Shown piece by piece: positions 29,246-43,026 of a DNA stretch of 64,000 bases. Under the pieces are notes generated by a model. The model searched no databases and had not been told where the DNA came from. It worked only from the letters and a program-made list of their open reading frames with translations. Origin of the DNA: Bacteroidales bacterium. Lineage in GTDB: Bacteria; Bacteroidota; Bacteroidia; Bacteroidales; P3. How positions within the stretch are numbered: position 1 is the first letter of the stretch; the number at the start of each line of letters is the position of its first letter. The stretch spans positions 6,018 through 70,017 of the forward strand of contig JAFWYO010000137.1 in NCBI GenBank assembly GCA_017517715.1. Direction: 5' to 3'. A program made the position numbers and the translations under genes.

Positions 29246-30049
29246 TTAGTGGGTGGTGGTGGTTTTGGCTTCGTTCCAATACTTCTGCATTTCCTCAAGG
29301 CTCAGTTCTTGGATATTGCGGCCTTGTTTGTGGGCTTCCGATTCGACATACTTGAATCTTTCGGCAAATTTGCGGTTGGTGCGGGCCAGTGCGTCGTCGG
29401 CATTGATGTTTTCGAAGCGAGCCCATTTGACGATGGCAAACAGCAGGTCGCCCAGCTCCTCTTCGGCATAATGTCGGGCAGTATCCCCTTCGGAGTGGTA
29501 TTTGCCCAAGGCATCGATAAATTCACCATATTCTTCGTCGACTTTGGCGATAGCCATTTCCCTGTTTGGGAATTCGAAACCCAGTCCTGCGGCTTTTTCC
29601 TGCAGCCTGATGGCTTTGATGAGCGACGGCAGGGAACTGGGTACACCTTCCAGGGCCGACCGCCTTCCCTCTTTCATCTTCACCTGCTCCCATTTCGGCG
29701 TCTCCTGCTGGCGGGCAGGCTGCATCACGCCGTCGCGATCGGGAAGCGCAATGTGCGGATGACGCGAAATCAGCTTGCTGCAAATGCTGTCAATCACATC
29801 GTTGAGGGCGAAATGGCCTTCGTCGTCGGCAATTTTGGAATAGAACATCAAATGCATAAACAGGTCGCCAAGCTCTTTGCGCATCTCGTCGTAGTTGGCT
29901 TTGGTTATGGCCTCTGAGAGTTCGTAAACCTCTTCAATGGTCAGATATCGCAGGCTGTCGATAGTCTGCACGCTGTCCCACGGGCATTCTTTCCTCAGAA
30001 TGTCCAAAATGCTGCTCAACCATTGGAGTGATTTCTGTTCTTCTGTCAT
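29246..30049 (-). CDS. mazG: Nucleoside triphosphate pyrophosphohydrolase
   Basis: KECPWD, EEVYEL and two tandem MazG-type EExxE motifs. Length is 267 aa. Confidence 0.88.
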   Translation of the reverse strand: MTEEQKSLQWLSSILDILRKECPWDSVQTIDSLRYLTIEEVYELSEAITKANYDEMRKELGDLFMHLMFYSKIADDEGHFALNDVIDSICSKLISRHPHIALPDRDGVMQPARQQETPKWEQVKMKEGRRSALEGVPSSLPSLIKAIRLQEKAAGLGFEFPNREMAIAKVDEEYGEFIDALGKYHSEGDTARHYAEEELGDLLFAIVKWARFENINADDALARTNRKFAERFKYVESEAHKQGRNIQELSLEEMQKYWNEAKTTTTH

Positions 30050-30068
30050 TGCGTTAGTTATGAATTGG

Positions 30069-32336
30069 TTATACTCTTTGCACCTGTTCCACTCCTTCTA
30101 TGGCCCTGATGCTTTCAATCAGTTGGTCCAGTCGGCTGAGGTTGTGGACATAGAGCATAATAAGTCCGTGGACAACACCTTCTGATGTTTCGAGTGTTAT
30201 GGCACGCATATTCAGGTTCATATCCTCGCTGATGATGCGCGTCAGTTGCTGCAGCAGTCCCTTGCGGTCGATGGCGGTTATGGTGATGCCTGTCAGGAAC
30301 GCAATCTTTTCGCCCGGACGCCAGCGCACGCGTACTATGCGGTCTTCGTGTGTCGACATTTCGTGGATGGCCGTAGGACAGTTCGTGCGGTGAACCATAA
30401 TCTTGTCGTTGCTGACGATGCCTACCACTCTGTCGCCTTGCACAGGCTTGCAGCACGGTGCGGGTTGGGTGTCGAAACTGTCGTATTTGGAGTCGGCGAG
30501 GAATGGCGAGGTGGTGATGGATTTTTGGCGGATATCCTTGGCGGAATTCTGCTGGTTTTTTCCGTCAAACAATTCTTGATAGGGCTGCAGGAATATCAGT
30601 TGCGGTTTCGACTTGCTCAGGTGGAAACATTGTTTCAGAGCATCTTCGTTGATGCTTCCTGTGGCTATGCGATAGTAGAGCTCAATGTCGCTGTCCAGGT
30701 TGAAGAACAGGCGCAGGCGTGCTGTGCGTTCGGGCGTAATGCTGATGTGCGATTTCTTCAGGAAGTCTTTGAGCATCTGTTCGCCCTTGTCGAAATATTG
30801 TTTCTTTTCGTTGCGCAGATAGTCTTTGATATGGTCTTTGGCTCTTTGGGTTTGTGCATTGTTGAGCCATTCCTCGTTGGGCACAGTTTTTTTCGAGGTC
30901 AGTATTTGAACCTGTTCGCCGCTATGCAGCCTGTAGCCTATCGGGACCACACGGGCGTTGACTTTGGCGCCGATGCAGTGGTCGCCCAATTCGGAGTGTA
31001 TGGCATAGGCAAAGTCCAGTACGGTGCTGCGCGACGGCAGTTTTATGGTTTCTCCTTTGGGCGTGAAGATGTATATTTCTTTGGTGTAGAGGGTTTCCTT
31101 GAATTCTTCCACCAGGTCGAGGGCGTTCTTGTTTGGGTCCTCCAGCGAACTGCGTATCTGTCCCAGCCATTGTTCGACGGGCGACTGTTGGATGGGCTCG
31201 TCGGGGTGTGCCTCCTTGTACAGGAAATGTGCCGCCATACCCTTTTCGGCTATCTGGTCCATACGCGTGGTGCGTATCTGCACCTCCACCCAGCGGCCGA
31301 TGGGACTCATCACCGTGGTGTGGAGCGACTCGTAGCCGTTGTTTTTGGGCGTTGTGATCCAGTCGCGGAAGCGTGTCGGTTGCGGTCGGAACAGGCCGGT
31401 AATGAGGGCATAAACCTTGAAGCACTCCTCTTTTTCTATCTTGTGCAGCTCCTCTTCGGGCATCGTTTCGCTGCCGGGGATGTCAAGGATGATGCGCATA
31501 GCGTAAAGGTCGAAAATCTCGTCAAACTGAACCCCCTTGTTCTGCATCTTTTTCCAGCACGAATAGACCGATTTGACGCGAGTCTTTATGTTGTAGTGGA
31601 AATCGTTCTTGTCCAGCAACTCGCGGATGGGTGCCGTGAAGCACTGTTTCAGTTTTATTTCTGTTCCGCTGGTTTTCTTTATTTTCTCCTCAATCTCGGC
31701 GTATTTGTCGGGATTGTTGTATTGCATCACCAGGTCGTCGAGTTCGGTCTTTATGTTGTAAAGTCCCAGCCGGTGCGCCAAAGGAATGTAAAGATACTGT
31801 GTTTCCGACGATATGGCCAGTTTCTTGGTGTCTTTCATCGACCCCAATGTGCGCATATTGTGAAGCCGGTCGCACAGTTTGAGGAAAATAACGTAGGCGT
31901 CGTCGCACATAGCCAACAATATCTTGCGGTAATTTTCGGCCTGCGAAGAGAAATCGTCATTCTGCTCGGCAATCATCGACGCTTTGTCGATCTTGGTCAC
32001 GCCGTCGACAATGCGGGCCACGCGGTCGCCAAACACGGCGCGTAGCGTCTCCAGCGTGATGTCGGTGTCTTCTACCACATCGTGCAGCAATGCGCACACC
32101 ACCGCAATCGGCCCCAGTCCAACCTCCTCGACAGCGATTTGTGCCACTGCCAGAGGGTGGAAGATGTACAGTTCGCCGCTTTTGCGCCGGGTGTCGCTAT
32201 GGGCATTGCTGGCTATGGTGAAAGCGCGGAAAATATTGTCTTCATCCTCGGTTGTCAACTGCTGGTTGGCCTTGCAGGTTGCTACTAGTTCGTCGTATTT
32301 CTGTTTTACAAGAAGTTCTTCCGGTATTTCGTCCAT
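30069..32336 (-). CDS. Bifunctional (p)ppGpp synthetase/hydrolase, RelA/SpoT family
   Basis: HD domain (LLHDVVEDT), synthetase region (YESLHTTV), and TGS and ACT-like C-terminal domains. Length is 755 aa. Confidence 0.9.
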   Translation of the reverse strand: MDEIPEELLVKQKYDELVATCKANQQLTTEDEDNIFRAFTIASNAHSDTRRKSGELYIFHPLAVAQIAVEEVGLGPIAVVCALLHDVVEDTDITLETLRAVFGDRVARIVDGVTKIDKASMIAEQNDDFSSQAENYRKILLAMCDDAYVIFLKLCDRLHNMRTLGSMKDTKKLAISSETQYLYIPLAHRLGLYNIKTELDDLVMQYNNPDKYAEIEEKIKKTSGTEIKLKQCFTAPIRELLDKNDFHYNIKTRVKSVYSCWKKMQNKGVQFDEIFDLYAMRIILDIPGSETMPEEELHKIEKEECFKVYALITGLFRPQPTRFRDWITTPKNNGYESLHTTVMSPIGRWVEVQIRTTRMDQIAEKGMAAHFLYKEAHPDEPIQQSPVEQWLGQIRSSLEDPNKNALDLVEEFKETLYTKEIYIFTPKGETIKLPSRSTVLDFAYAIHSELGDHCIGAKVNARVVPIGYRLHSGEQVQILTSKKTVPNEEWLNNAQTQRAKDHIKDYLRNEKKQYFDKGEQMLKDFLKKSHISITPERTARLRLFFNLDSDIELYYRIATGSINEDALKQCFHLSKSKPQLIFLQPYQELFDGKNQQNSAKDIRQKSITTSPFLADSKYDSFDTQPAPCCKPVQGDRVVGIVSNDKIMVHRTNCPTAIHEMSTHEDRIVRVRWRPGEKIAFLTGITITAIDRKGLLQQLTRIISEDMNLNMRAITLETSEGVVHGLIMLYVHNLSRLDQLIESIRAIEGVEQVQRV

Positions 32337-32372
32337 ATTGTAATGTGGTGATAAATGTTTGTTTTATGGTGA

Positions 32373-32957
32373 TTAAAAAATAATCCAAGCCCCAAATAGC
32401 GCAGCCAGATTGAGGCTTAGGCCAATGGTGTAGTAGGCCCTATGGTCGACATACACCCTGCTCAGCGAAATGCTCCACCAGGCAAACCGGCCTCCGTTGG
32501 CATTGTAGTTGGCGCCCAAACGGGCGCCTATTTCGAAGCCTACGGGGTTGGCAAAAAACTGTTCCAGCCCCTGCGCGTATGCCACGCCGCCAAACAGTTG
32601 CCAGTCGGTCCTGACAATACCGGCAAGCGGCCTCACAACAAGGCCGCCTGTCAGCATATAATGTGAATAATTAAGCGCTCCGCTTGCATATCCGCCCATT
32701 CTGTAGGGCACGTATGAAAAATTTAGACCCAATTTCGTAGAGTTGTTTCTCTGAAAGACTGTCAAGCCCTCAAAGAAGAAACTGCTGTATTCGATGTCGC
32801 CTTTCGCCGCCTTTTGCAGGTGGTGCAGTGACTGACTCACTCCGACCGACGATTCGTATTGCAATTCGTCGCTGCTGCTTACCACCTCGTCGTTGTTCTG
32901 TGCTCGTACGGAAGTCAGCAGAAAAACAAGCGATATGCAAAGTAAAAAGCGTTTCAT
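32373..32957 (-). CDS. Hypothetical secreted/outer-membrane protein
   Basis: Signal peptide MKRFLLCISLVFLLTSVRAQ. The body is Gly/Tyr-rich and beta-strand-like. Confidence 0.55.
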   Translation of the reverse strand: MKRFLLCISLVFLLTSVRAQNNDEVVSSSDELQYESSVGVSQSLHHLQKAAKGDIEYSSFFFEGLTVFQRNNSTKLGLNFSYVPYRMGGYASGALNYSHYMLTGGLVVRPLAGIVRTDWQLFGGVAYAQGLEQFFANPVGFEIGARLGANYNANGGRFAWWSISLSRVYVDHRAYYTIGLSLNLAALFGAWIIF

Positions 32958-32961
32958 TGGC

Positions 32962-33987
32962 CTATTCTTTCGTCTCCGACAAAGCCTGGCGGATATTGCT
33001 CTCCAGTTCGTCGCTCAGCTCCGGATCGTCGCGCAGCAGCATCTTGACGGCTTCGCGGCCCTGAGCCAGCTTGCTCTCGCCATAGCTGAACCACGAGCCG
33101 CTCTTCTTGATGACGCCGGTCTCGACGCCAAGGTCCACAATTTCGCCATATTTCGAGATGCCTTCGCCAAACATCAGGTCGAACTCACACACGCGGAACG
33201 GAGGCGCCACCTTGTTCTTCACCACCTTCACCTTCACACGGTTGCCGATGTTCTGGTCGCCGTCCTTGATGGCCTGTATGCGGCGAATGTCGAGGCGCAC
33301 CGAAGCGTAGAACTTCAGCGCGTTGCCGCCCGTCGTCGTCTCGGGGTTGCCGAACATCACGCCGATTTTCTCGCGCAGCTGGTTGATGAAGATGCAGCAG
33401 CAGCCCGTCTTGCTGATGGTCGACGTCATCTTGCGCAGGGCCTGCGACATCAGGCGGGCGTGCAGACCCACCTTCGAGTCGCCCATCTCGCCGTCGATTT
33501 CGGCCTTGGGCGTCAGGGCCGCCACCGAGTCGATGACGATGATGTCGATGGCACCCGAGCGTATCAGGTTGTCGGCAATTTCAAGGGCCTGCTCGCCGTT
33601 GTCGGGCTGCGACACCAGCAGGTTGTCGATGTCCACACCCAGCTTGCGGGCATATACCGGGTCGAAAGCGTGCTCGGCATCGATAAAAGCAGCAATGCCG
33701 CCCTTCTTCTGGCTCTCGGCGATGGCGTGGATGGCCAGCGTCGTCTTACCCGACGATTCGGGGCCGTAGATTTCGATGATTCTTCCCTTCGGAAAACCAC
33801 CGATGCCCAGCGCCGCGTCCAGGCTTATCGAGCCCGTCGAAATGGCCTCGTAGGTCTCGTCTGGACGGTCGCCCAGCTTCATAATCGAACCCTTGCCATA
33901 GCTCTTCTCGATTTTGTCCAGCGTACTCTGCAGTATTTTCAGTTTCTCCAGTTTCGATGCTTCTGCATCATTCATTTCTTTTGCCAT
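32962..33987 (-). CDS. recA: Recombinase A
   Basis: [11 protein letters not shown] Walker A and the [22 protein letters not shown] motif. I preferred the ATG at 33987 (MAKEMND) over the upstream TTG. A TAAATTTG box lies on the minus strand at 34044-34051. Confidence 0.92.
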
Positions 33988-34113
33988 AATTATCAAAATG
34001 TTATATGTTGTTATAAATTTATTTTTGCAGATTTTGCAATCTACAAATTTACATATTTTTTTTAAAATCGACTAAAGCTTTCAAAAAAATATTACCATTC
34101 CAAAAAAAATTCG

Positions 34114-34121
34114 TACTTTTG
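34114..34121 (+). promoter_or_regulatory. -7 box TACTTTTG upstream of the aminotransferase gene
   Basis: Matches TAnnTTTG 26 nt upstream of the ATG at 34147. Confidence 0.45.
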
Positions 34122-34146
34122 CAAATTCATTCAAACAATCAAAACT

Positions 34147-35349
34147 ATGGAAATCTTATCAAACCGCATTCTAAATATGGCCGAGTCCGAGACTCTGGCT
34201 ATGACCGCAAAAGCACGCGAACTCAAGGCCCAGGGCAAAGACGTTATCAGCCTCAGCATCGGCGAGCCCGATTTCAACACCCCCGAGGTGGTCAAAGAGG
34301 CCGCAAAGAAAGCCATCGACGACAACTTCACCCACTATCCCCCCGTGCCCGGCTATCCCGACCTGCGCGAAGCCGTATGCGAGAAGTTCCGCCGCGACAA
34401 CGGCCTCGAATTCAAGCCCGAACAGATCGTCGTCAGCACCGGCGCCAAGCAGAGCCTATTCCAGGTGGTGCAGTGCCTCATCAACCCCGGCGACGAGGTT
34501 ATCATCCCCACACCATTCTGGGTCAGCTACAAGGAGTTCGTCCGCCTGGCCGAAGGCAAATGCGTCTTCGTCAAGACCAAGCTCGAGAACGACTTCAAGG
34601 TGACCCCCGAGCAGCTCGAAGCCGCCATCACACCGCGCACCAAGCTCATAATGTTCTCCTCGCCCAGCAACCCCACCGGTATGCTCTACACCAAAGAGGA
34701 GCTGCGCGGCATCGCCCAGGTCGTCGCACGCCACGAAAACCTCTTCGTCCTGGCCGACGAAATCTATGAGCACATCAACTTCGTCGGCAAGCACGAGTCG
34801 ATAGCCCAGTTCCCCGAAGTCCGCGACCGCGTCATCACCGTCAACGGCGTCGCCAAAGGCTTCGCAATGACCGGCTGGCGCATCGGCTTCATCGCCGCCC
34901 CCACCGTCATCGCCAAAGCCGCCAACAAGCTGCAGGGCCAGGTGACCAGCGCCACCTGCTCCATTGCCCAGAAGGCCACCGTCTGCGCTATGCTGATGGA
35001 CCCCAAGACCTCGAAAGACATTATCGATATGCGCAACACCTTCCAGCGTCGCCGCGACCTGGTCTACAAGCTCCTCTGCGAAATACCGGGCCTCAAAGTA
35101 CGCCTGCCGCAGGGTGCCTTCTACTTCTTCCCCGATGTCAGCTCCTACTATGGCAAGTCCTTCAATGGCAAAAAGATAGAAAACAGCACCGATATGGCTT
35201 TCTATCTCCTCAACGAGGCCAACGTAGCCACCGTGATGGGCTCCGCCTTCGGCGACGACACCTGCATCCGCCTCAGCTACGCCACCAGCGAAGACCTCCT
35301 TGTCGAAGCCATCCGCCGCATCAAAGAGGCCCTGGCCAAGCTGCAGTAA
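34147..35349 (+). CDS. Class I/II pyridoxal-phosphate aminotransferase (aspartate aminotransferase-like)
   Basis: SNPTGM, and the NGVAKGFAMTGWRIG PLP-lysine region. Length is 400 aa. Confidence 0.85.
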   Translation: MEILSNRILNMAESETLAMTAKARELKAQGKDVISLSIGEPDFNTPEVVKEAAKKAIDDNFTHYPPVPGYPDLREAVCEKFRRDNGLEFKPEQIVVSTGAKQSLFQVVQCLINPGDEVIIPTPFWVSYKEFVRLAEGKCVFVKTKLENDFKVTPEQLEAAITPRTKLIMFSSPSNPTGMLYTKEELRGIAQVVARHENLFVLADEIYEHINFVGKHESIAQFPEVRDRVITVNGVAKGFAMTGWRIGFIAAPTVIAKAANKLQGQVTSATCSIAQKATVCAMLMDPKTSKDIIDMRNTFQRRRDLVYKLLCEIPGLKVRLPQGAFYFFPDVSSYYGKSFNGKKIENSTDMAFYLLNEANVATVMGSAFGDDTCIRLSYATSEDLLVEAIRRIKEALAKLQ

Positions 35350-35370
35350 TATACTACACAACAAAAATCA

Positions 35371-35407
35371 AAACCCCGAAACCCTATTGTAGTTTCGGGG
35401 TTTTTGT
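35371..35407 (+). terminator. Rho-independent terminator after the aminotransferase gene
   Basis: AAACCCCGAAAC / GTTTCGGGGTTT stem followed by a T-run. Confidence 0.75.
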
Positions 35408-35432: not shown

Positions 35433-35608
35433 CCCGTCGCGGCGGATCTGCGATCCGACGCTTAATAATATAACGATTTTCAATCCGCAGCACAATAAAA
35501 CGCTTGCAACAGCGTTAATGTTGGCGGATTGAAAATCCTGATACTAAGCAGTATCGGATTGCAAATCCGATACAACACACGCAAAAAAAGGACATCCGCC
35601 GCGTCGGG
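35433..35608 (+). repeat. Cassette-boundary element, copy 1 (full length, about 176 bp)
   Basis: Terminal inverted repeats are CCCGTCGCGGCGGAT and ATCCGCCGCGTCGGG. Nested internal stems are GATTTTCAATCCGC/GCGGATTGAAAATC, AACGCT/AGCGTT, GATACT/AGTATC and GTATCGGATT/AATCCGATAC. Confidence 0.9.
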
Positions 35609-35699
35609 AGTCTGGATCATATAATGAATCCAGAGCACAACTCAAAGTATGCAGAAAGGATGAGAACTGTTTTCGGGACTAACAAAGCACGTAGTAACT

Positions 35700-36392
35700 A
35701 TGAAAAAAATAAAATTGAAAAACAGGCGCGGTATATTATGTATTAACACTGTGTTAGCTATTAGTTTTGCACTATTATCGTGCAATAATAATGGAAATTG
35801 TTCTTCGTTTCCAGACTTGGAATTACATAACGAAACAGTGAATGATTTCAAGGTCAAATTTCTCATTCCGAGAAACTACACGAAAAATCTGCGTGATGAA
35901 CGGTCCCGGTTGGCTTTTTATATTGACAGGACAATGATGGACGACGGTTCTCTAATCTTTTTCTCAAACGATGAGCCTAGATCCTATTTTGCAATAATGT
36001 CTTGCAATTTTAAGGACGACCCCTATAGGTATTCCGATTATATGAAAGGAGGTGAGCTCTATTTGGATTCAATTTTGACTATCCAGCAACTATCCAATGA
36101 CAAAGATTGGACCTCCAGAATGCCCTTAATACAAAAAAAGAAAGATAAGAACGGTCATCCAATAACTGTCGCACAATACATTACACGATATATGGATTCT
36201 GACACTATCTGGGGTTTCCCTAATATAAGCGTAGGAGCGGTTGAAAAAGATTCTGTCGAAGCCATTTTCGATTTTACAACAATTATTGGAACAAATATCA
36301 TTGAGTGTTACTACTATTCGCTTGATTCGTATGATAATTTCTCCTACGAGCGATACTTGAAAATGTTAGAATCGATAGCAGTTTCCAAATAA
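35700..36392 (+). CDS. Cassette 1: hypothetical lipoprotein (AT-rich)
   Basis: 230 aa with lipobox-like FALLSCNNNG. I recognise no family. Confidence 0.6.
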   Translation: MKKIKLKNRRGILCINTVLAISFALLSCNNNGNCSSFPDLELHNETVNDFKVKFLIPRNYTKNLRDERSRLAFYIDRTMMDDGSLIFFSNDEPRSYFAIMSCNFKDDPYRYSDYMKGGELYLDSILTIQQLSNDKDWTSRMPLIQKKKDKNGHPITVAQYITRYMDSDTIWGFPNISVGAVEKDSVEAIFDFTTIIGTNIIECYYYSLDSYDNFSYERYLKMLESIAVSK

Positions 36393-36432
36393 TTAATCCG
36401 TTGCTGCAGATGTTGGGTGTTCGCATCGATTA

Positions 36433-36609
36433 CCCGACGCGGTGGATCTGCGATCCGACGCTGGTTAATATAAGGATTTTCAGTCCGCAGCACAATAAAA
36501 CACTTGCAACAGCGTTAATGTTGGCGGATTGAAAATCCTGATACTAAGCAGTATCGGATTGCAAATCCGATACAACACACGCAAAAAAAAGAACATCTGC
36601 CGCGTCGGG
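36433..36609 (+). repeat. Cassette-boundary element, copy 2 (full length)
   Basis: Near-identical to copy 1. The arm substitutions (GGTGGAT / ATCTGCC) keep pairing as G-T wobbles. Confidence 0.9.
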
Positions 36610-36629
36610 AATAAACGAATAATTATAGG

Positions 36630-36827
36630 ATGATAATTGCAAATTATATAGGTGGTTTTTTCCGCTGGCTTCTTAGAGGGTGTCGGACAAGATTGGATGA
36701 CGAATTGCATTGCAAAAATGGATGGCTCGACAACATTCCAATACTAAACATATATGAGAATGCAATCCTTGCTATGCTGTTTGTTGCCATAGTAATTGTT
36801 GCATTGTTTGTTTTTGGGATTTTATAG
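36630..36827 (+). CDS. Cassette 2: small hydrophobic protein (65 aa)
   Basis: C-terminal TM helix AILAMLFVAIVIVALFVFGIL. It starts 21 nt after repeat copy 2. Confidence 0.45.
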   Translation: MIIANYIGGFFRWLLRGCRTRLDDELHCKNGWLDNIPILNIYENAILAMLFVAIVIVALFVFGIL

Positions 36828-36983
36828 ATCCGACGCTTAATAATATAACGATTTTCAGTCCGCAGCACAATAAAACACTTGCAACAGCGTTAATGTTGGC
36901 GGATTGAAAATCCTGATACTAAGCAGTATCGGATTGCAAATCCGATACAACATACAAAAAAAACGAACATCCGCCGCGTCGGG
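36827..36983 (+). repeat. Cassette-boundary element, copy 3 (lacks the 5' terminal arm)
   Basis: Starts at GATCCGACGC, overlapping the cassette 2 stop codon. The rest is collinear with copies 1 and 2 through ATCCGCCGCGTCGGG. Confidence 0.9.
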
Positions 36984-37021
36984 AGTTAAAATCACAAGAA
37001 GTCTACTGAAAAAAATCTGAA

Positions 37022-37633
37022 ATGTCCAAGAAAGATATTATAACTGATGTATTAATGGTTACAATCGCCATTATCATTTCATTTACCTTTTTTTTATATA
37101 AAAAAAATAACATCTTACAAGAATATGCTTTTGACAAATGTGATACAACTGAGATGCCAGAATTTTTAATACCTTTTTATTATGTACCAAATAATCCTTT
37201 CCCAACAATCAAAGTAAAAACTCAATCTTGTATAGACTCTAATTTTTTTCAATGGGATTCTATTCTTGTTAATGTCTCAAAATTCTTTTATTTGAAAGTA
37301 TATAAAGCAGATTCTGTTTGTTTGCTGAATCCTTGCGATAACGAATGTTCGATTAAAGAAATGACGGTGTATTACAAAACTGGAGAAAGATTATACACAG
37401 GCAATTCTTTGAACAAAAATGACAGAATAAAAAGATTACTTGCAGTATTAGATTCAATTACAATCGCAGAAATGAAAAAAAATTCATATAGATATACGTC
37501 AACCTACGAAGAATTCCAGAAAAAAAACAAAGAAACTATACTCTATGACTATGAATACACTGAACATTTTGAGAATGGATTAAGGCAACCATACGATAGA
37601 TTTGATGTCAAATTAATGTTTGTTTCTCGCTGA
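37022..37633 (+). CDS. Cassette 3: hypothetical membrane-anchored protein
   Basis: 203 aa with N-terminal TM VLMVTIAIIISFTFFLY. It is very AT-rich. Confidence 0.55.
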   Translation: MSKKDIITDVLMVTIAIIISFTFFLYKKNNILQEYAFDKCDTTEMPEFLIPFYYVPNNPFPTIKVKTQSCIDSNFFQWDSILVNVSKFFYLKVYKADSVCLLNPCDNECSIKEMTVYYKTGERLYTGNSLNKNDRIKRLLAVLDSITIAEMKKNSYRYTSTYEEFQKKNKETILYDYEYTEHFENGLRQPYDRFDVKLMFVSR

Positions 37634-37646
37634 ATAACTCCAATTG

Positions 37647-37692
37647 AAATCCGATACAACACACGCAAAAAAAGAACATCCGCCGCGTCGGG
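37647..37692 (+). repeat. Cassette-boundary element, copy 4 (3'-terminal 46 bp only)
   Basis: AAATCCGATACAACACACGCAAAAAAAGAACATCCGCCGCGTCGGG matches the 3' end of the full copies. Confidence 0.85.
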
Positions 37693-37775
37693 TTTGGTTG
37701 AATGTTCTGTCATATACAGGAGGTAGTAAAACAAAGTATTACACAATTGGTGCATATAAATGAAAAAAGAACAAG

Positions 37776-38766
37776 ATGAGAGATATTACCACTATTATTA
37801 TGGCATTGTTTCTGGTAATGACTCTGACAACAGAATCATTTGGACAAAATCCCGATTATTCCTTTTCTATAGAGGAGATCAATGGCTTTTGCTATGATAT
37901 TTATTCTCATAATAATAAAGAATACAAAGTTTGTTACGGCAGGCCGTCCTTTTCAAAAACTCTATTTCATTTTTCAGATGCTGAGAGAAAATGTTTTATA
38001 CTCCAATCAAAAAGATTTTCACCGACTGGAATGAATAGTCGAATTTTAATCTTAGATATAAAAAACAATATTGTACAAGAAATAGACAGTTGTTACGATA
38101 AGAATAATGGAATAAATCGTAAGGATTATTTGGCTACGTCAGGAGATACTGTTTATTTGGCATACCCCGAAAAAAATACTATTATCGCTTGTCTTTTTTC
38201 AAAACAAATGACACCTGCTTTTTCGAGTAGCAACAAGAGTAATTTTTTAAATATAATTGAACATCATCAGGATATATATACTTGGTGTGTCACAAAAAAT
38301 AATAAGAGGTTAGCATACAAGAGGAACGAAGAAGATAGCATAACTGTTATTTCCGAATACGAGACAGTAAAAATTCCATCGGGGTTTTCCGAAGTTTTAG
38401 CGTGGAGAGATGAAAATCACTTGCTCTATACAAAAATAGAAGTAAAAGGAATGGGAGATTTCTATTACGATTTATATGAATATAATATACAAGAAAAAAA
38501 AAAGCAACTTGATACTTGAAGGATTGCTGGATGTATATGATTTCTATAGCAACTTATTGTTATATTCAACCTCGCATAACAAACTAACTGTAGCTAGTCT
38601 AAATGGTGATGGGATAAAAGTGGAAAAGCAATTAGATCTTTCAACTCAATTTGAGTGGGTTTATTCGGCATATATTATTAATGACGATGAATTCATAATA
38701 GGAGGAGATAAAGATCAAACAGATTGTCACTATTTTAAATGCAGATTTTCAATTGCAAAAGATTGA
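37776..38766 (+). pseudogene. Cassette 4: secreted repeat/beta-propeller-like hypothetical protein, frameshifted in an A10 run
   Basis: ORFs 37776-38519 and 38476-38766 overlap across the A10 run at 38494-38503. Removing one A fuses them (..YEYNIQEKK-SNLILEGLL..). The signal peptide is MALFLVMTLTTESFGQ. Confidence 0.6.
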
Positions 38767-38842
38767 TATTTTAATGTAATATATTATCTTGCTATAGCGG
38801 AATTTGCAATTATTCACCCGACGCGTCGGATGTTCGAGGCGT

Positions 38843-38924
38843 TGCGGCGGATCTGCGATCCGACGCTGGTTAATATAAGGATTTTCAATCCGCAGCACAC
38901 AAAAAAGAACACCCGCCGCGTCGG
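38843..38924 (+). repeat. Cassette-boundary element, copy 5 (internal deletion of about 95 bp), preceded by a 20-nt duplicate of the 3' terminus at 38814-38834
   Basis: GCGGCGGATCTGCGATCCGACGCTGGTTAATATAAGGATTTTCAATCCGCAGCACA is joined directly to CAAAAAAGAACACCCGCCGCGTCGGG. Confidence 0.85.
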
Positions 38925-39004
38925 GATGTTTTCATCTTTAAGTTATGACAGAAATCATATCTGCCAGACGTTTATTCAAGTTTTGATAGAGTGACAAAAC
39001 CTGA

Positions 39005-39231
39005 CGGTGCGACACACCCCGCCCGTTGGGCACCCCTCTCCGAGAGGGGATGGCGCGGTAGCGGTTTGGATGTCTGTTAGTTTGACGCAACTATTTACGA
39101 GAAAAAAATCGACTGCGTAGCCATCCCCTCTCGGAGAGGGGAGAAGGAACTGCCAGTAGGATCCAAAGCTCCAGTGAAGCTTTGGAGTTCCGATAGCGAA
39201 GCGGTGAACAAAAGGGCGGGGTGTGTCGCAC
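39005..39231. repeat. Composite inverted repeat (GGTGTGTCGCAC box plus CCCCTCTCNGAGAGGGG palindrome box)
   Basis: 39032-39053 is the exact reverse complement of 39119-39140 (22/22). 39005-39023 is the reverse complement of 39213-39231 (18/19). Confidence 0.85.
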
Positions 39232-39324
39232 TCGCAATCCCAAGCGGACAATAAATGCAGGTGTGTCGCACTCGCAATCCCAAGCGGACAATAAATTCAG
39301 GTGTGTAGCACTCGCAATCCCAAG
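39219..39324 (+). repeat. 40-bp tandem repeat, 2.6 copies (GGTGTGTCGCACTCGCAATCCCAAGCGGACAATAAATNCA)
   Basis: Copies start at 39219, 39259 and 39299 with an exact 40-nt period and no unique spacers. Confidence 0.9.
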
Positions 39325-39805
39325 CTGTTTTTCTAATCGAGATTCAAACCGCCGGATTCGTTCTGGCTGTTTTTTGCCGCCGGAAAGCCTCGACAGGCGC
39401 CTCTTGCCAGCGGCATAACTCCCTGTTGCACATATACCATCTTCTTATCATCTTCTACTAAACTTCTTTTTAACTTTTTACTAAATTCTACTTCAGTAGG
39501 CAATAATAAGAAGAAAGTAACGTTATGGTTAAAACTTAATGTGGCGATGCGAGGGTGAAATGTGGTTCAATTCGATTGAAAACAGATGACCTCTAAATAT
39601 TCTTCTTTCTTGAACACGAATTTAACGAATAATACGAATTAAAAGCTCCGTAAATATTAACTGTGAAAGCAAACGATGCTGCCACACACGGGGCCACTCT
39701 ACGCGCTCCACAGGAGCTTGTACCAAGCAAAACACGAATTTTACGAATTACAGAGGTTGCCGACAGTAATTAGTGATTGTGTAATAAACAGTAAATGATA
39801 CGCTT

Positions 39806-41557: not shown

Positions 41558-41640
41558 GGTGTGTCGCACCGTCAAACCAAACGTACAGGGTGTGTCGCAC
41601 TCGCAAACCCAGGCGGAGAATAAACGGGCGGGGTGTGAGG
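41558..41640 (+). repeat. Two GGTGTGTCGCAC boxes plus a GGGCGGGGTGTG box (same family as 39005-39324)
   Basis: GGTGTGTCGCACCGTCA at 41558, GGTGTGTCGCACTCGCAAACCCAGGCGGAGAATAAA at 41589, then CGGGCGGGGTGTGAGG. Confidence 0.8.
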
Positions 41641-41832: not shown

Positions 41833-43026
41833 TTAGTCTGCTTCGTAGATCAGCAGCTCGCCGTCGACGTAGAGGAAGAGCATCGGGTCTTTGTCTCTTT
41901 TCTTGAAGATCCAGCATCCGCCGTTCTCGCGGTCGATTTCGGTCTTGATGTATCGGCTGCTGATTTGCTGCTCGGCCAGCACTTTGTCGTTCTGGTCGAA
42001 GACCTGCAGGTAGGTGTTGCCGTCCGCATCGTTCACGATGGCGTACATTATGTCGCCGCTCACGGCATAGCTCACCAGGTCGACGTTGTAGGTCTCGCGG
42101 ACGTAGCGGTTCACGACGACGACGTCAGTAACGTGATAGTCATACCAATACGAGTTGCAGTAGACCCAGAAGCCTGGCCAGAAGATGGGGCGCGGATGGA
42201 CGTGGACCCACACCACGGGGCGCATATGCATCATATGGTGATGGTAGGGGTGGTGGAAATAGGGTGCGGGGTGCATCGGACGGTGCGAGGGGGGCATATG
42301 TCCTGGACGGTCGGGGCGTGCATAGTGATGGCCGGGGTGGTTCTGCGGATGGACTGTGCCACGGCCGCTTTGTCCTATGGTGCCGGGGGCGCCGGGTGCA
42401 CCGTTGCCGCGCGATTTGCTGACGCGGGGAGCGTTGTCGGCACGGTTGCTGCTGAGACCTGCCGAATGCTCGTTGCGGCCACGGCTGCCGATATCGCCAC
42501 TGTTGCGTGACGGACGGTCGCCGCCGCGAACGCCGTTCGATGCGGGACGGCTGGGCGAACTGCTGCGCGGTGCCTCGATCGAGGAGCGCGAGCTGCTGCG
42601 CACGCTGCTGCGGCCGTTATCGGACGAGGTGCCGCGATAGGTGGCTGTGCCTCTGCGCTCGGAAGACGATGGGCGCGACACGGAGCCGCCGCGGCTGCCC
42701 GAGAACGAGCTGCTGCTGCGCGACGAAGAATTTGAAAACGAACTGGAGCTGCGGTTGCTGCTGCCCGAATGCGAACTGCGGCTGCTGCCAGAGAATGAAC
42801 TGCCGCTGCGCGACGAGGAGCCCGAGTACGAGCTGCTGCTACGCGACGAGCTGGAGTGCGAACTGCCGCTGAACGAACTGTGGCTGCCACCACCGCGCGA
42901 ACTGCTCGATGAAGAAGAGCTGTGGCCACCGCCACGCGAACCGCCGCCGCGTCCTTGGGCATACACCGGGGTAGCGCTGAGCAGGGTTCCTAGTGCCACA
43001 ATTGCGATTAACTTGTTGGTTTTCAT
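41833..43026 (-). CDS. Secreted protein with a Ser/Gly/Arg low-complexity region of about 200 aa, a His/Pro-rich segment and a compact C-terminal domain
   Basis: 397 aa with signal peptide MKTNKLIAIVALGTLLSATPVYAQ. This is followed by GGSRGGGHSSSSSSSSRGGG..., then HPQNHPGHHYARPDRPGHMPPSHRPMHPAPYFHHPYHHHMMHM. Confidence 0.7.
   Translation of the reverse strand: MKTNKLIAIVALGTLLSATPVYAQGRGGGSRGGGHSSSSSSSSRGGGSHSSFSGSSHSSSSRSSSSYSGSSSRSGSSFSGSSRSSHSGSSNRSSSSFSNSSSRSSSSFSGSRGGSVSRPSSSERRGTATYRGTSSDNGRSSVRSSSRSSIEAPRSSSPSRPASNGVRGGDRPSRNSGDIGSRGRNEHSAGLSSNRADNAPRVSKSRGNGAPGAPGTIGQSGRGTVHPQNHPGHHYARPDRPGHMPPSHRPMHPAPYFHHPYHHHMMHMRPVVWVHVHPRPIFWPGFWVYCNSYWYDYHVTDVVVVNRYVRETYNVDLVSYAVSGDIMYAIVNDADGNTYLQVFDQNDKVLAEQQISSRYIKTEIDRENGGCWIFKKRDKDPMLFLYVDGELLIYEAD

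Follow-up and report, generated by a model that had tools for sequence, protein, structure and literature searches.

A candidate array of orphan Rhs immunity genes bounded by a palindromic repeat in a Bacteroidales genome

The stretch of DNA analyzed here, hereafter the window, comprises 64,000 nt of contig JAFWYO010000137.1 (positions 6,018 to 70,017 of the forward strand) from the assembly GCA_017517715.1 of a Bacteroidales bacterium. Behind an aspC-like aminotransferase gene, at 35433-38925, four low-GC open reading frames (ORFs) on the same strand are bounded by five co-oriented copies of one palindromic element, which is absent from the rest of the window. The ORFs are designated as cassettes 1 to 4 and the element copies as W1 to W5. 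The cassettes are candidate orphan immunity genes of an Rhs polymorphic-toxin system, and several of them carry the remnant of a gene for an Rhs C-terminal toxin (Rhs-CT). The features of the locus are as follows.

34147-35349: aspC-like aminotransferase gene (Pfam Aminotran_1_2, 2.9e-79).
35370-35404: bidirectional intrinsic terminator of the aspC-like gene, a 14-pair stem followed by a T run; the array begins 28 nt further on.
35433-35608, plus strand: W1, full short-form element of 176 nt with the termini CCCGTCGCGGCGGAT and ATCCGCCGCGTCGGG; hairpin z = -7.3.
35609-35743, plus strand: Rhs-CT toxin-gene remnant, the last 45 codons and the stop codon, fused to the W1 3' terminus and overlapping the start of cassette 1.
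35700-36392, plus strand: cassette 1, a 230-aa lipoprotein, putative orphan Rhs immunity gene with homologues after Rhs-CT ORFs.
36433-36609, plus strand: W2, full short-form element; the unit shared with locus L039 ends exactly at its 3' terminus.
36630-36827, plus strand: cassette 2, 65 aa with a C-terminal hydrophobic segment, putative orphan immunity gene whose stop codon abuts W3.
36827-36983, plus strand: W3, 5'-truncated element (element positions about 45-200), a mosaic of two allelic block sets.
36984-37020, plus strand: second Rhs-CT toxin remnant, the last ~12 codons and the stop codon, fused to the W3 3' terminus and recognized by homology to L038.
37022-37633, plus strand: cassette 3, 203 aa with an N-terminal membrane anchor, putative orphan Rhs immunity gene with a homologue in L038.
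37647-37692, plus strand: W4, only the 3' end of the element, recognized by comparison with L038.
37693-37775, plus strand: spacer with a probable third toxin-gene tail; homology to the 3' end of the L058 Rhs-CT ORF from 37712.
37776-38766, plus strand: cassette 4, a secreted all-beta protein, putative orphan Rhs immunity gene, frameshifted into 37776-38519 and 38476-38766; 329 aa if intact.
38816-38925, plus strand: W5, terminal short form, consisting of the long-form 5' inverted repeat and 5' half, then a jump to the last ~30 nt.

The GC content is 0.26-0.39 over 35550-38850, compared with 0.54-0.62 in aspC and 0.55-0.65 past 39750. The 15-mer terminus of the element, searched with up to 2 mismatches, has 8 matches in the window, all 8 of them within 35433-38925; shuffled sequences give an expectation of 0.14, and none of them reached 8. 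An earlier inspection of the letters alone, referred to as the sequence-only reading, had described a cassette-like array of same-strand, AT-rich single ORFs split by a structured repeat and set between GC-rich flanks, and both the layout and the measured composition support it. On re-checking the sequence, its positions for W1 to W4 proved correct. The fifth copy is internally deleted, as it had stated, but spans 38816-38925 rather than 38843-38924, because the 20-mer at 38816-38835 is the 5' terminal inverted repeat (CCCGACGCGGCGGATGTTC) of a long form of the element seen at other loci. This 20-mer had been taken for a 20-nt duplicate of the 3' end at 38814-38834; it is the reverse complement of that end, not a direct copy. 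The W5-type short element with the same downstream flank also closes the arrays of L060 and L044. The absence of a recombinase from the window, also noted earlier, was confirmed with profile and tblastn searches: no recombinase, transposase, or RHS gene was found in the 64 kb by Pfam analysis of the ORFs and by tblastn, and no DUF8202 gene by tblastn. The window ORFs outside the array were recognized by Pfam as housekeeping genes only, and Rfam and tRNA scans of the window gave no matches.

Pfam and NCBIfam assigned no significant family to the four cassette proteins. At other loci, each of the four has a homologue encoded directly after an ORF with an Rhs-associated core. These ORFs (FTGKEKDSETGFYYFGARYYDP...DPMADKYPSISPYAYC) score 61-64 bits on the model TIGR03696 (Rhs_assc_core), whose cut-off is 32.5, and each is followed by a small low-GC gene, which is the usual arrangement of a toxin-immunity pair. 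Cassette 1 is 99% identical to L039 4035-4727, directly after a 282-aa Rhs-CT ORF that scores 64.4 bits against the cut-off of 32.5. More distant relatives of cassette 1 are an ORF after CT359 in L064 (70%), a 233-aa ORF after the orphan CT246 in L026 (54%), and an ORF after CT321 in L063 (52%), and the family is tiny, with 15 clusters at 50% identity among 1.84 billion representatives. Cassette 2 is 51% identical to a 71-aa ORF (L039 4979-5194; L060 7634-7849), which in L060 directly follows a 314-aa Rhs-CT ORF with 64.5 bits on Rhs_assc_core. Cassette 3 is 97.5% identical to L038 10259-10870, directly after a 239-aa Rhs-CT ORF (DKYPNISPYAYCAWNPIKLVDPD). Cassette 4, whose family comprises 6 clusters, is 60% identical to P0124 (331 aa), directly after a 299-aa Rhs-CT ORF in L058 and L059. 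These neighborhoods identify the four cassettes as probable orphan immunity genes from an Rhs/YD polymorphic-toxin system. The sequence-only reading had pointed to immunity storage and to the orphan immunity genes of Bacteroidales, and both were good leads. Its broader proposal of an uncharacterised gene-capture system is not borne out: arbitrary cargo was not seen, and the cargo consists of Rhs immunity genes and, elsewhere, one toxin-antitoxin pair.

The likely cognate toxin of cassette 1 (L039 3233-4081) has no family match and contains the motif HGAGHNAGFNH. Cassette 4, which had been listed as a single ORF, is frameshifted in the window. A run of ten A at 38492-38501 replaces the run of nine A in the same-species loci L002 and L011, and the products are 247 and 96 aa instead of 329 aa; the longer run may be either a real slip-strand variant or an assembly error. 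An AlphaFold2 model of the 329-aa protein, built from a 6-sequence alignment, is all-beta but unreliable, with a predicted local distance difference test score (pLDDT) of 46.9. The propeller-like character named by the sequence-only reading is therefore a tentative assignment.

The parentage of the cassettes is also indicated by toxin-gene tails. Three window cassettes retain the last 12-45 codons of a toxin gene, joined exactly to the 3' terminus of an element. The tail behind W1 shows 97.8% identity to residues 238-282 of the 282-aa Rhs-CT ORF of L039 in tblastn, and such identity over 45 codons makes chance similarity unlikely. The DNA homology with L039 begins at 35607, at the end of W1, extends through the 45 toxin codons and the immunity gene, and has its other limit exactly at the 3' terminus of the following element, W2. 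The homology with L038 (98.8% over 672 nt) begins at 36982, where W3 has its 3' terminus, and this point precedes the stop codon of the 239-aa Rhs-CT ORF by 38 nt. For cassette 4, window positions 37712-38766 align with L058 2024-3081 at 70% in blastn, and in a local alignment the homology with the 3' end of the L058 toxin gene reaches back to the terminal GGG of W4. The three junctions between 3' terminus and toxin tail, ATAGG/AGTCTGG, AATGG/AGTTAAA, and GGGG/TTGGTTGA, are independent and all lie on G-runs. Thus, three events have joined the element 3' terminus to a G-run inside a toxin gene, and at each junction the toxin is deleted with the tail and the immunity gene kept. This association extends beyond the window: in 28 loci, without exceptions, full elements precede only immunity-only cassettes. 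In front of modules that retain the toxin lie the 5' half of the element, a conserved leader of another kind (~230 nt), and a remnant of the Rhs core. The 5' termini of the element cut into a piece of Rhs core in L039 and a piece of RHS body in L040.

The element is non-coding, 176-210 nt long, and about 70% self-complementary. It is a long imperfect palindrome with terminal inverted repeats (TIRs) of 15-20 nt, its termini are CCCGACGCGGCGGAT and ATCCGCCGCGTCGGG, and it has no GTTRRRY motif. The short form of 176 nt corresponds to the long form of ~200 nt, which is common at other loci, minus ~22 nt between two GCGGCGGAT direct repeats. One long imperfect hairpin is predicted (DNA -46.5 kcal/mol, z = -7.3; RNA z = -8.2; long form z = -8.2, all against shuffled sequences), in line with the 15-nt inverted-repeat termini and folded boundaries proposed by the sequence-only reading. 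The comparison with L038 indicates that W4 arose by a simple deletion of element positions 29-151 over a 7-nt AAATCCG microhomology. Two allelic blocks, B and D, are found in all four combinations among the copies, and recombination between copies has therefore occurred. A covariation analysis on 21 hairpin copies gave a term of -0.26 with double changes in 2 of 41 pairs, and this test is uninformative because the copies are too conserved. Between the window and L012, a metagenome-assembled genome (MAG) from goat omasum, the copies are ~95% identical, in comparison with 75-79% for the housekeeping genes of the relA/mazG region.

L012 was the one other array found by a strict pattern scan of species-representative genomes, and one contig of this Bacteroidales MAG matched. 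A 19-mer scan of metagenomes yielded 31 pattern matches, of which 22 are true loci; the other 9 were discarded as chance matches of 19-27 nt in high-GC contigs. The true metagenome loci adjoin low-GC cassettes or RHS modules in 17 cases and carry a toxin-antitoxin pair in 2, and the remaining 3 are contig-end fragments. This distribution differs from that of a repetitive extragenic palindrome (REP) or a miniature inverted-repeat transposable element (MITE) scattered at random intergenic sites, which the sequence-only reading had named as the outcome that would count against it. The identity of a REP or bacterial interspersed mosaic element was rejected, on the grounds of the wrong size and of the confinement of the element to the array. 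In total, 77 element pieces were recognized in 28 loci. A same-strand low-GC ORF lies within 300 nt 3' of 26 of the 33 pieces having a 3' terminus, and the stop codon of such an ORF within 150 nt 5' of 42 of the 66 pieces having a 5' terminus. Usually the element begins 0-50 nt past an immunity stop codon, and 2-136 nt separate its 3' end from the next start codon; it is oriented as the genes are and confined to arrays. The comparison contigs are short and broken at the repeats, and assemblies also break at the Rhs core. The element had no match among viral contigs, plasmids, and phages.

Two unusual arrangements of the element were observed. In L021 (156-877) and L037 (3077-3797), a RelE/YafQ-like toxin of 93 aa and an antitoxin of 77 aa, with GC ~0.5, lie between the 5' and 3' parts of the element; the pair was apparently inserted at the hairpin apex, which yields a TIR-cargo-TIR form. 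In L041 (1477-1863), two full elements stand in direct tandem, 3 nt apart, with no cassette between them.

The sequence-only reading had raised the presence of a recombinase at the end of arrays elsewhere, and a tyrosine recombinase does occur in related loci. L026 and L063 together give the order of a DUF8202/Por_Secre_tail protein, a 2992-aa SpvB/TcdB_mid/FG-GAP/RHS protein, an immunity gene, and orphan modules. The modules are separated by 5' halves of the element, and a full element closes the array of L063. In L026, a tyrosine recombinase gene with an in-frame stop lies upstream of the DUF8202 gene, and the recombinase is truncated in L024. The intact XerD-like recombinase P0001 has 336 aa, and its family comprises more than 120 clusters with identities of 57-75%. 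Every context examined has one layout, with inverted orphan toxin-immunity modules, then the recombinase, the DUF8202 gene with the tail of the type IX secretion system (T9SS), and an RHS gene of ~3000 aa; L055 contains six or more inverted orphan modules. In L026, L063, and L044-L057, the order from the recombinase through the DUF8202 and RHS genes continues with an immunity gene and orphan modules. In L024 and L044, which represent near-identical strains, the recombinase-RHS locus lies between aspC and the 39300-39748 flank of the window. Because relatives carry such loci at the same site, the window array can be regarded as the orphan arm of an Rhs locus without the weapon and the recombinase.

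The recombinase gene does not border on the repeats. Where the recombinase is 59-62% identical, the orphan arrays of the recombinase-RHS loci contain no element, and in the distant locus L055 no equivalent intergenic repeat was found, with only the Rhs-core coding repeat shared. The repeat as the site of this recombinase is therefore only one of several live hypotheses, since the recombinase also heads repeat-less RHS loci. On integron-integrase models, the recombinase scores 62.6 bits against a cut-off of 265 (TIGR02249) and 43.5 against 435 (NF011946).

The recombinase loci show a further regularity. In L044-L047, L048-L057, and L063, a recombinase of 330-336 aa and an RHS protein of ~3000 aa recur in the same layout. 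Each inverted orphan core shares inverted repeats of ~180 nt (79-90% identity) with the core of the main RHS gene, and eight metagenome contigs of ~11 kb begin and end in inverted Rhs-core copies. The ~11-kb segment looks like an invertible unit able to swap the toxin tip. A search of the available literature for recombinase-driven Rhs toxin switching or an Rhs shufflon found nothing relevant.

The locus varies among close relatives. The sequence-only reading had held that invariance across strains would speak against its proposal; the strains do differ, with breakpoints at the repeats. Contigs with 97.5-98.5% identity in aspC differ in what they carry: another array, an inverted one, or part of an RHS gene. 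L038 matches 10 kb of the window at 97.5% identity, up to the aspC stop codon, past which lies an inverted array that still has the 239-aa toxin and the 203-aa immunity gene. L024, 98.5% identical in aspC, carries parts of a recombinase and of an RHS protein (698 aa) together with an immunity gene, and its element faces aspC. L044 has the recombinase-RHS locus and an orphan module beside the window-type 39300-39748 flank, and L060 has the window-type terminal short element and flank with other cassettes. L036, 92.7% identical, has the aspC-W1 junction in common and two other cassettes. Further away, L012 (JAFROL010000009.1) is 75-79% identical in the relA/mazG and recA regions, and its array, with different genes, lies after mazG instead of aspC. 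The comparison of L012 with window 29246-35349 is consistent with an inversion between species, either of the mazG-relA-recA-aspC block or of the array.

Two further observations concern orientation and boundaries. Among near-identical strains, the array orientation relative to aspC flips, as seen between the window and both L038 and L024. The L012 array ends in the downstream flank of the serine-rich protein gene.

As judged from these sequence comparisons, the most probable explanation, with a probability of about 0.65, is that the locus is an orphan-immunity island of an uncultured gut or rumen Bacteroidales, devoid of toxins and derived from the variable arm of an Rhs/YD polymorphic-toxin locus. 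Synteny suggests that each immunity protein would neutralise one Rhs C-terminal toxin delivered by related strains, and antidotes kept without the weapon would most likely serve as defence against the toxins of rivals. The toxin genes appear to have been deleted, and the retained tail probably holds the expression signals of the immunity gene itself. The palindromic element would form the cassette boundary after the immunity stop codon, with its 3' terminus as the precise junction. Cassettes of toxin tail, immunity gene, and repeat would thereby occur in varied combinations, positions, and orientations across strains and species.

The reshuffling may have two parts. The first would be homologous recombination or gene conversion between near-identical repeats, to which the mosaic copies point. 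The second would be an end-specific step that joins the 3' terminus (...GCCGCGTCGGG) to GG sites in toxin genes and removes the toxin. With a slight lean, it is proposed that an enzyme recognizes the hairpin termini in trans, either an XerD-like recombinase or a transposase, and these two readings of the end-specific step carry roughly equal weight.

Among described systems, rAID-1 is the closest in function and layout. It is defined by several criteria and has integron-like intergenic repeats (10.1101/471110). Its definition includes at least two co-directional genes with GC of 41% or less, and the window has four at 0.26-0.39; the two systems also share a Bacteroidales host, orphan immunity genes, in the window probable ones by the adjacency of homologues to Rhs-CT ORFs, and, in loci related to the window, an XerD-like tyrosine recombinase. 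Conserved intergenic motifs are perhaps a further likeness, as repeats are present in the window. However, the first criterion of rAID-1 is an adjacent 5' recombinase, with BF9343_RS08045 as the reference and 44% identity as the lower bound, and no recombinase occurs in the ~30 kb that the window covers to each side of the array, so that the locus lies outside the definition. In the related loci, the low-GC orphan arm and the recombinase gene run divergently, the recombinase has no co-oriented low-GC genes directly downstream, and on its other side the DUF8202/T9SS-tail gene and the 9-kb RHS gene separate it from orphan modules. The window immunity genes appear to be tied to giant SpvB/TcdB/RHS proteins, whereas rAID-1 is defined on immunity families of the type VI secretion system, and the window repeat is a 176-200-nt palindrome with terminal inverted repeats.

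As for descent, the window locus appears to derive from Rhs orphan arrays of the C-terminal-displacement type, with the core remnants, the toxins, and the main gene lost. The likeness is clearest in L026, L063, and L055, in which a full-length RHS gene is accompanied by modules composed of a core piece, a new toxin domain, and an immunity gene. The window differs in several respects. It is not beside a full-length rhs gene, as are the arrays of L026, L063, L055, and L044, and its cassettes keep 12-45 toxin codons and no core remnant, whereas the relatives keep all three parts. The palindromic repeat replaces the core remnant as the conserved sequence between cassettes, and the parent locus includes a tyrosine recombinase and an inverted orphan arm. 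In Enterobacteria, orphan rhs-CT/immunity modules formed by C-terminal displacement were reportedly described by Jackson et al. in 2009, Poole in 2011, and Koskiniemi in 2014.

Tandem heterogeneous immunity genes without toxins are also a feature of polyimmunity loci. These loci of polymorphic toxin systems were reportedly described by Zhang, Iyer, Aravind and colleagues in 2012, and an Rhs-linked poly-immunity cluster in Stenotrophomonas is reported in bioRxiv 10.64898/2026.07.13.738213. The descriptions are not known to include a conserved palindromic boundary repeat or base-precise toxin-tail junctions, both of which the window has.

Several observations weigh against the reading as an orphan-immunity island. 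No cassette protein matches a known immunity family in Pfam or NCBIfam, and identity to the partner proteins elsewhere is no higher than 51% for cassette 2 and 60% for cassette 4. The 17 clusters homologous to the cassette 1 toxin are all orphan-sized ORFs of 166-359 aa, and in these 17 clusters the toxin was never found at the end of a full-length RHS protein, although assembly breaks at the Rhs core could hide such cases. Because cassette 4 is frameshifted in the window, the array may be decaying rather than maintained. The same-strain contigs L001-L011 are collinear with the window and show no variation. Neither the element nor the GCGGCGGAT motif was found near the recombinase or within the recombinase-RHS segment, and more distant recombinase-RHS loci have no element. 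When the flanks of 20 full copies were joined and compared with the 64 loci, no target-site duplication or empty site was found, only artefacts of tandem copies.

Integron-like capture is the first alternative to consider, and it is doubtful. The repeat would be a folded attC-like site, and the XerD-like recombinase of the RHS locus, encoded elsewhere in the genome, would act in trans, excising circles of toxin tail, immunity gene, and repeat by recombination between the 3' terminus and GG secondary sites and re-inserting them at the 3' terminus of a resident repeat. attC sites are 57-141 bp long and have R''/L''...L'/R' boxes with RYYYAAC and GTTRRRY cores, and clusters of attC sites without an integrase are known as CALINs. 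The window resembles both in its cassettes, which are single ORFs on one strand, mostly without promoters, and end in an imperfect palindrome that can fold and is strictly co-oriented with them, in the sharp crossover at the 3' end of the site, and, as to CALINs, in having no integrase beside the array. The strong hairpin and the unit shared between strains, which is exactly tail, gene, and repeat, also agree with capture. The inverted arms of 8-9 nt, GCGGCGGA and TCCGACGC, 7 nt apart, resemble the core site of a tyrosine recombinase, and intact loci of the same lineage do carry a conserved recombinase. The integron-like repeats of rAID-1 provide a precedent (10.1101/471110).

Nevertheless, the locus is not an integron. 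The sequence-only reading had compared the boundaries with attC sites with due reservations, and these stand: the element is longer (176-200 nt against 57-141), has no RYYYAAC or GTTRRRY cores, and is accompanied by no IntI-type integrase in the window. In addition, the related recombinase scores far below the integron-integrase cut-offs (62.6 bits against 265), and the window cargo is restricted to probable immunity genes. As for capture by the XerD-like recombinase, no repeat or motif lies beside it, and an equivalent of attI is thus absent. The orphan arrays of loci at 59-62% recombinase identity do without the repeat, two loci with the element have a pseudogenised or truncated recombinase, and no circular junction was found among the contigs. 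The toxin-antitoxin pair lying inside the repeat, between its halves, represents the opposite topology.

A selfish MITE-like palindrome that colonises Rhs orphan arrays is an unlikely alternative as well. It could be of the TIR type, or a palindrome-associated transposable element of the IS200/IS605 type, which inserts strand-specifically without duplications. A copy would land in a toxin gene and recombine homologously with the element half upstream, deleting the toxin and leaving an immunity-only cassette. The anatomy fits: a short non-coding element of ~200 nt with both ends defined, inverted termini of 15-20 nt, an AT-rich interior, internal-deletion derivatives, and high identity among copies. 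The cross-species identity of ~95% against ~77% for housekeeping genes points to recent spread, and arrays occur at several chromosomal sites (aspC, mazG, a membrane-protein gene, and others). The 5' termini cutting the core and body fragments of L039 and L040, the 3' termini cutting toxin genes, the cargo form of L021 and L037 (5' half, toxin-antitoxin pair, 3' half), and the tandem copies 3 nt apart in L041 also speak for a mobile element. Against such an element stands its confinement. The copies are restricted to Rhs/immunity arrays, without exception in the orientation of the genes, the 64-kb window has none beyond the array, a single contig of the goat MAG matched the strict pattern, and plasmids, phages, and viral contigs gave no matches. 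Neither target-site duplication nor empty site was found in the 64 loci, a small data set, and no toxin gene with an inserted element and both flanks kept was seen. An autonomous partner with the same ends was not found; one IS3-type OrfA fragment lies beside a copy in L031.

A more ambitious variant, which must be called improbable, takes the repeat as the recombination site of a hairpin-dependent immunity-cassette system, an analogue of the integron with unrelated sites. The XerD-like recombinase would run it in trans and would also invert the 11-kb recombinase-DUF8202-RHS segment between the ~180-nt inverted Rhs-core repeats, swapping the toxin tip. If true, this would be a toxin shufflon coupled to an antidote archive.

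It is likewise improbable that the repeat is primarily an expression element, that is, a terminator or insulator, a hairpin that stabilises RNA, or a sequence bringing along a promoter of the Bacteroidetes type, which would allow independent gene expression with shuffling as a by-product of homology. Its constant orientation with the genes, the placement of the 5' half 0-50 nt after stop codons and of the 3' end 2-136 nt before start codons, the strong RNA fold (z = -8.2), and the GC-rich GCGGCGGATC/GATCCGACGC hairpin at the element start are in accordance with such a role. However, the terminator scan calls no intrinsic terminator inside the elements on the coding strand, no TAnnTTTG-type -7 box is visible by eye in the 3' half, and no Rfam family matches. 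There is almost no covariation (-0.26; 2 of 41 pairs), and a structural role alone would not require 95% conservation across species. The precise junctions with the ends of toxin genes would also be left unexplained.

Inert wreckage, that is, a decaying remnant of an Rhs locus with no current defence role after the loss of the RHS gene and the recombinase, would account for the frameshift in cassette 4, the truncated or deleted copies, and the recombinase pseudogenised in L026 and truncated in L024, but is improbable, given that 3 of the 4 immunity ORFs are intact with all toxin genes removed, that this pattern recurs in L012, L027, L036, L039, and L060, that cassette proteins are 97.5-99% identical to the copies of other strains, and that cassette 4 is intact in the same-species L002 and L011.

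Orphan-immunity islands shape strain competition in the human gut, and their assembly is an open question in the field (PMC12247911). If the locus is an orphan-immunity island, it would extend such islands to rumen-type Bacteroidales and to giant SpvB/TcdB/RHS toxins beside a T9SS-tail protein. Its anatomy is legible: the cassette boundaries are base-precise, the toxin tails reveal the parent modules, and near-identical strains carry different cassette sets. Such clean boundaries make it a useful case for how defence islands assemble, and the ends of the defined 176-200-nt repeat are directly testable against the candidate recombinase. If the repeat is the substrate of a recombinase or transposase, it would provide a concrete mechanism for toxin stripping and antidote archiving; if not, the locus would still be a clear example of the reshuffling of defence genes by recombination at dedicated repeats.

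A second repeat family, GGTGTGTCGCAC(TCGCAATCCCAAGCGGACAATAAAT), was observed downstream of the array at 39007-39339, 41558-41600, and 43193, with 8 matches where 0.3 would be expected. Three of its units, each of 40 nt, stand in tandem at 39220-39339, and a perfect 22-nt inverted repeat lies at 39033-39054 and 39120-39141. The copies flank the genes for a DUF6266 protein, a thioesterase, and a serine-rich protein. The last of these genes (41833-43026, minus strand) encodes a secreted protein of 397 aa, which has no Pfam match and contains a low-complexity stretch of ~200 residues rich in Ser, Gly, and Arg and a stretch rich in His and Pro. The same gene recurs as the far boundary of arrays elsewhere (L020, L034, and L036).

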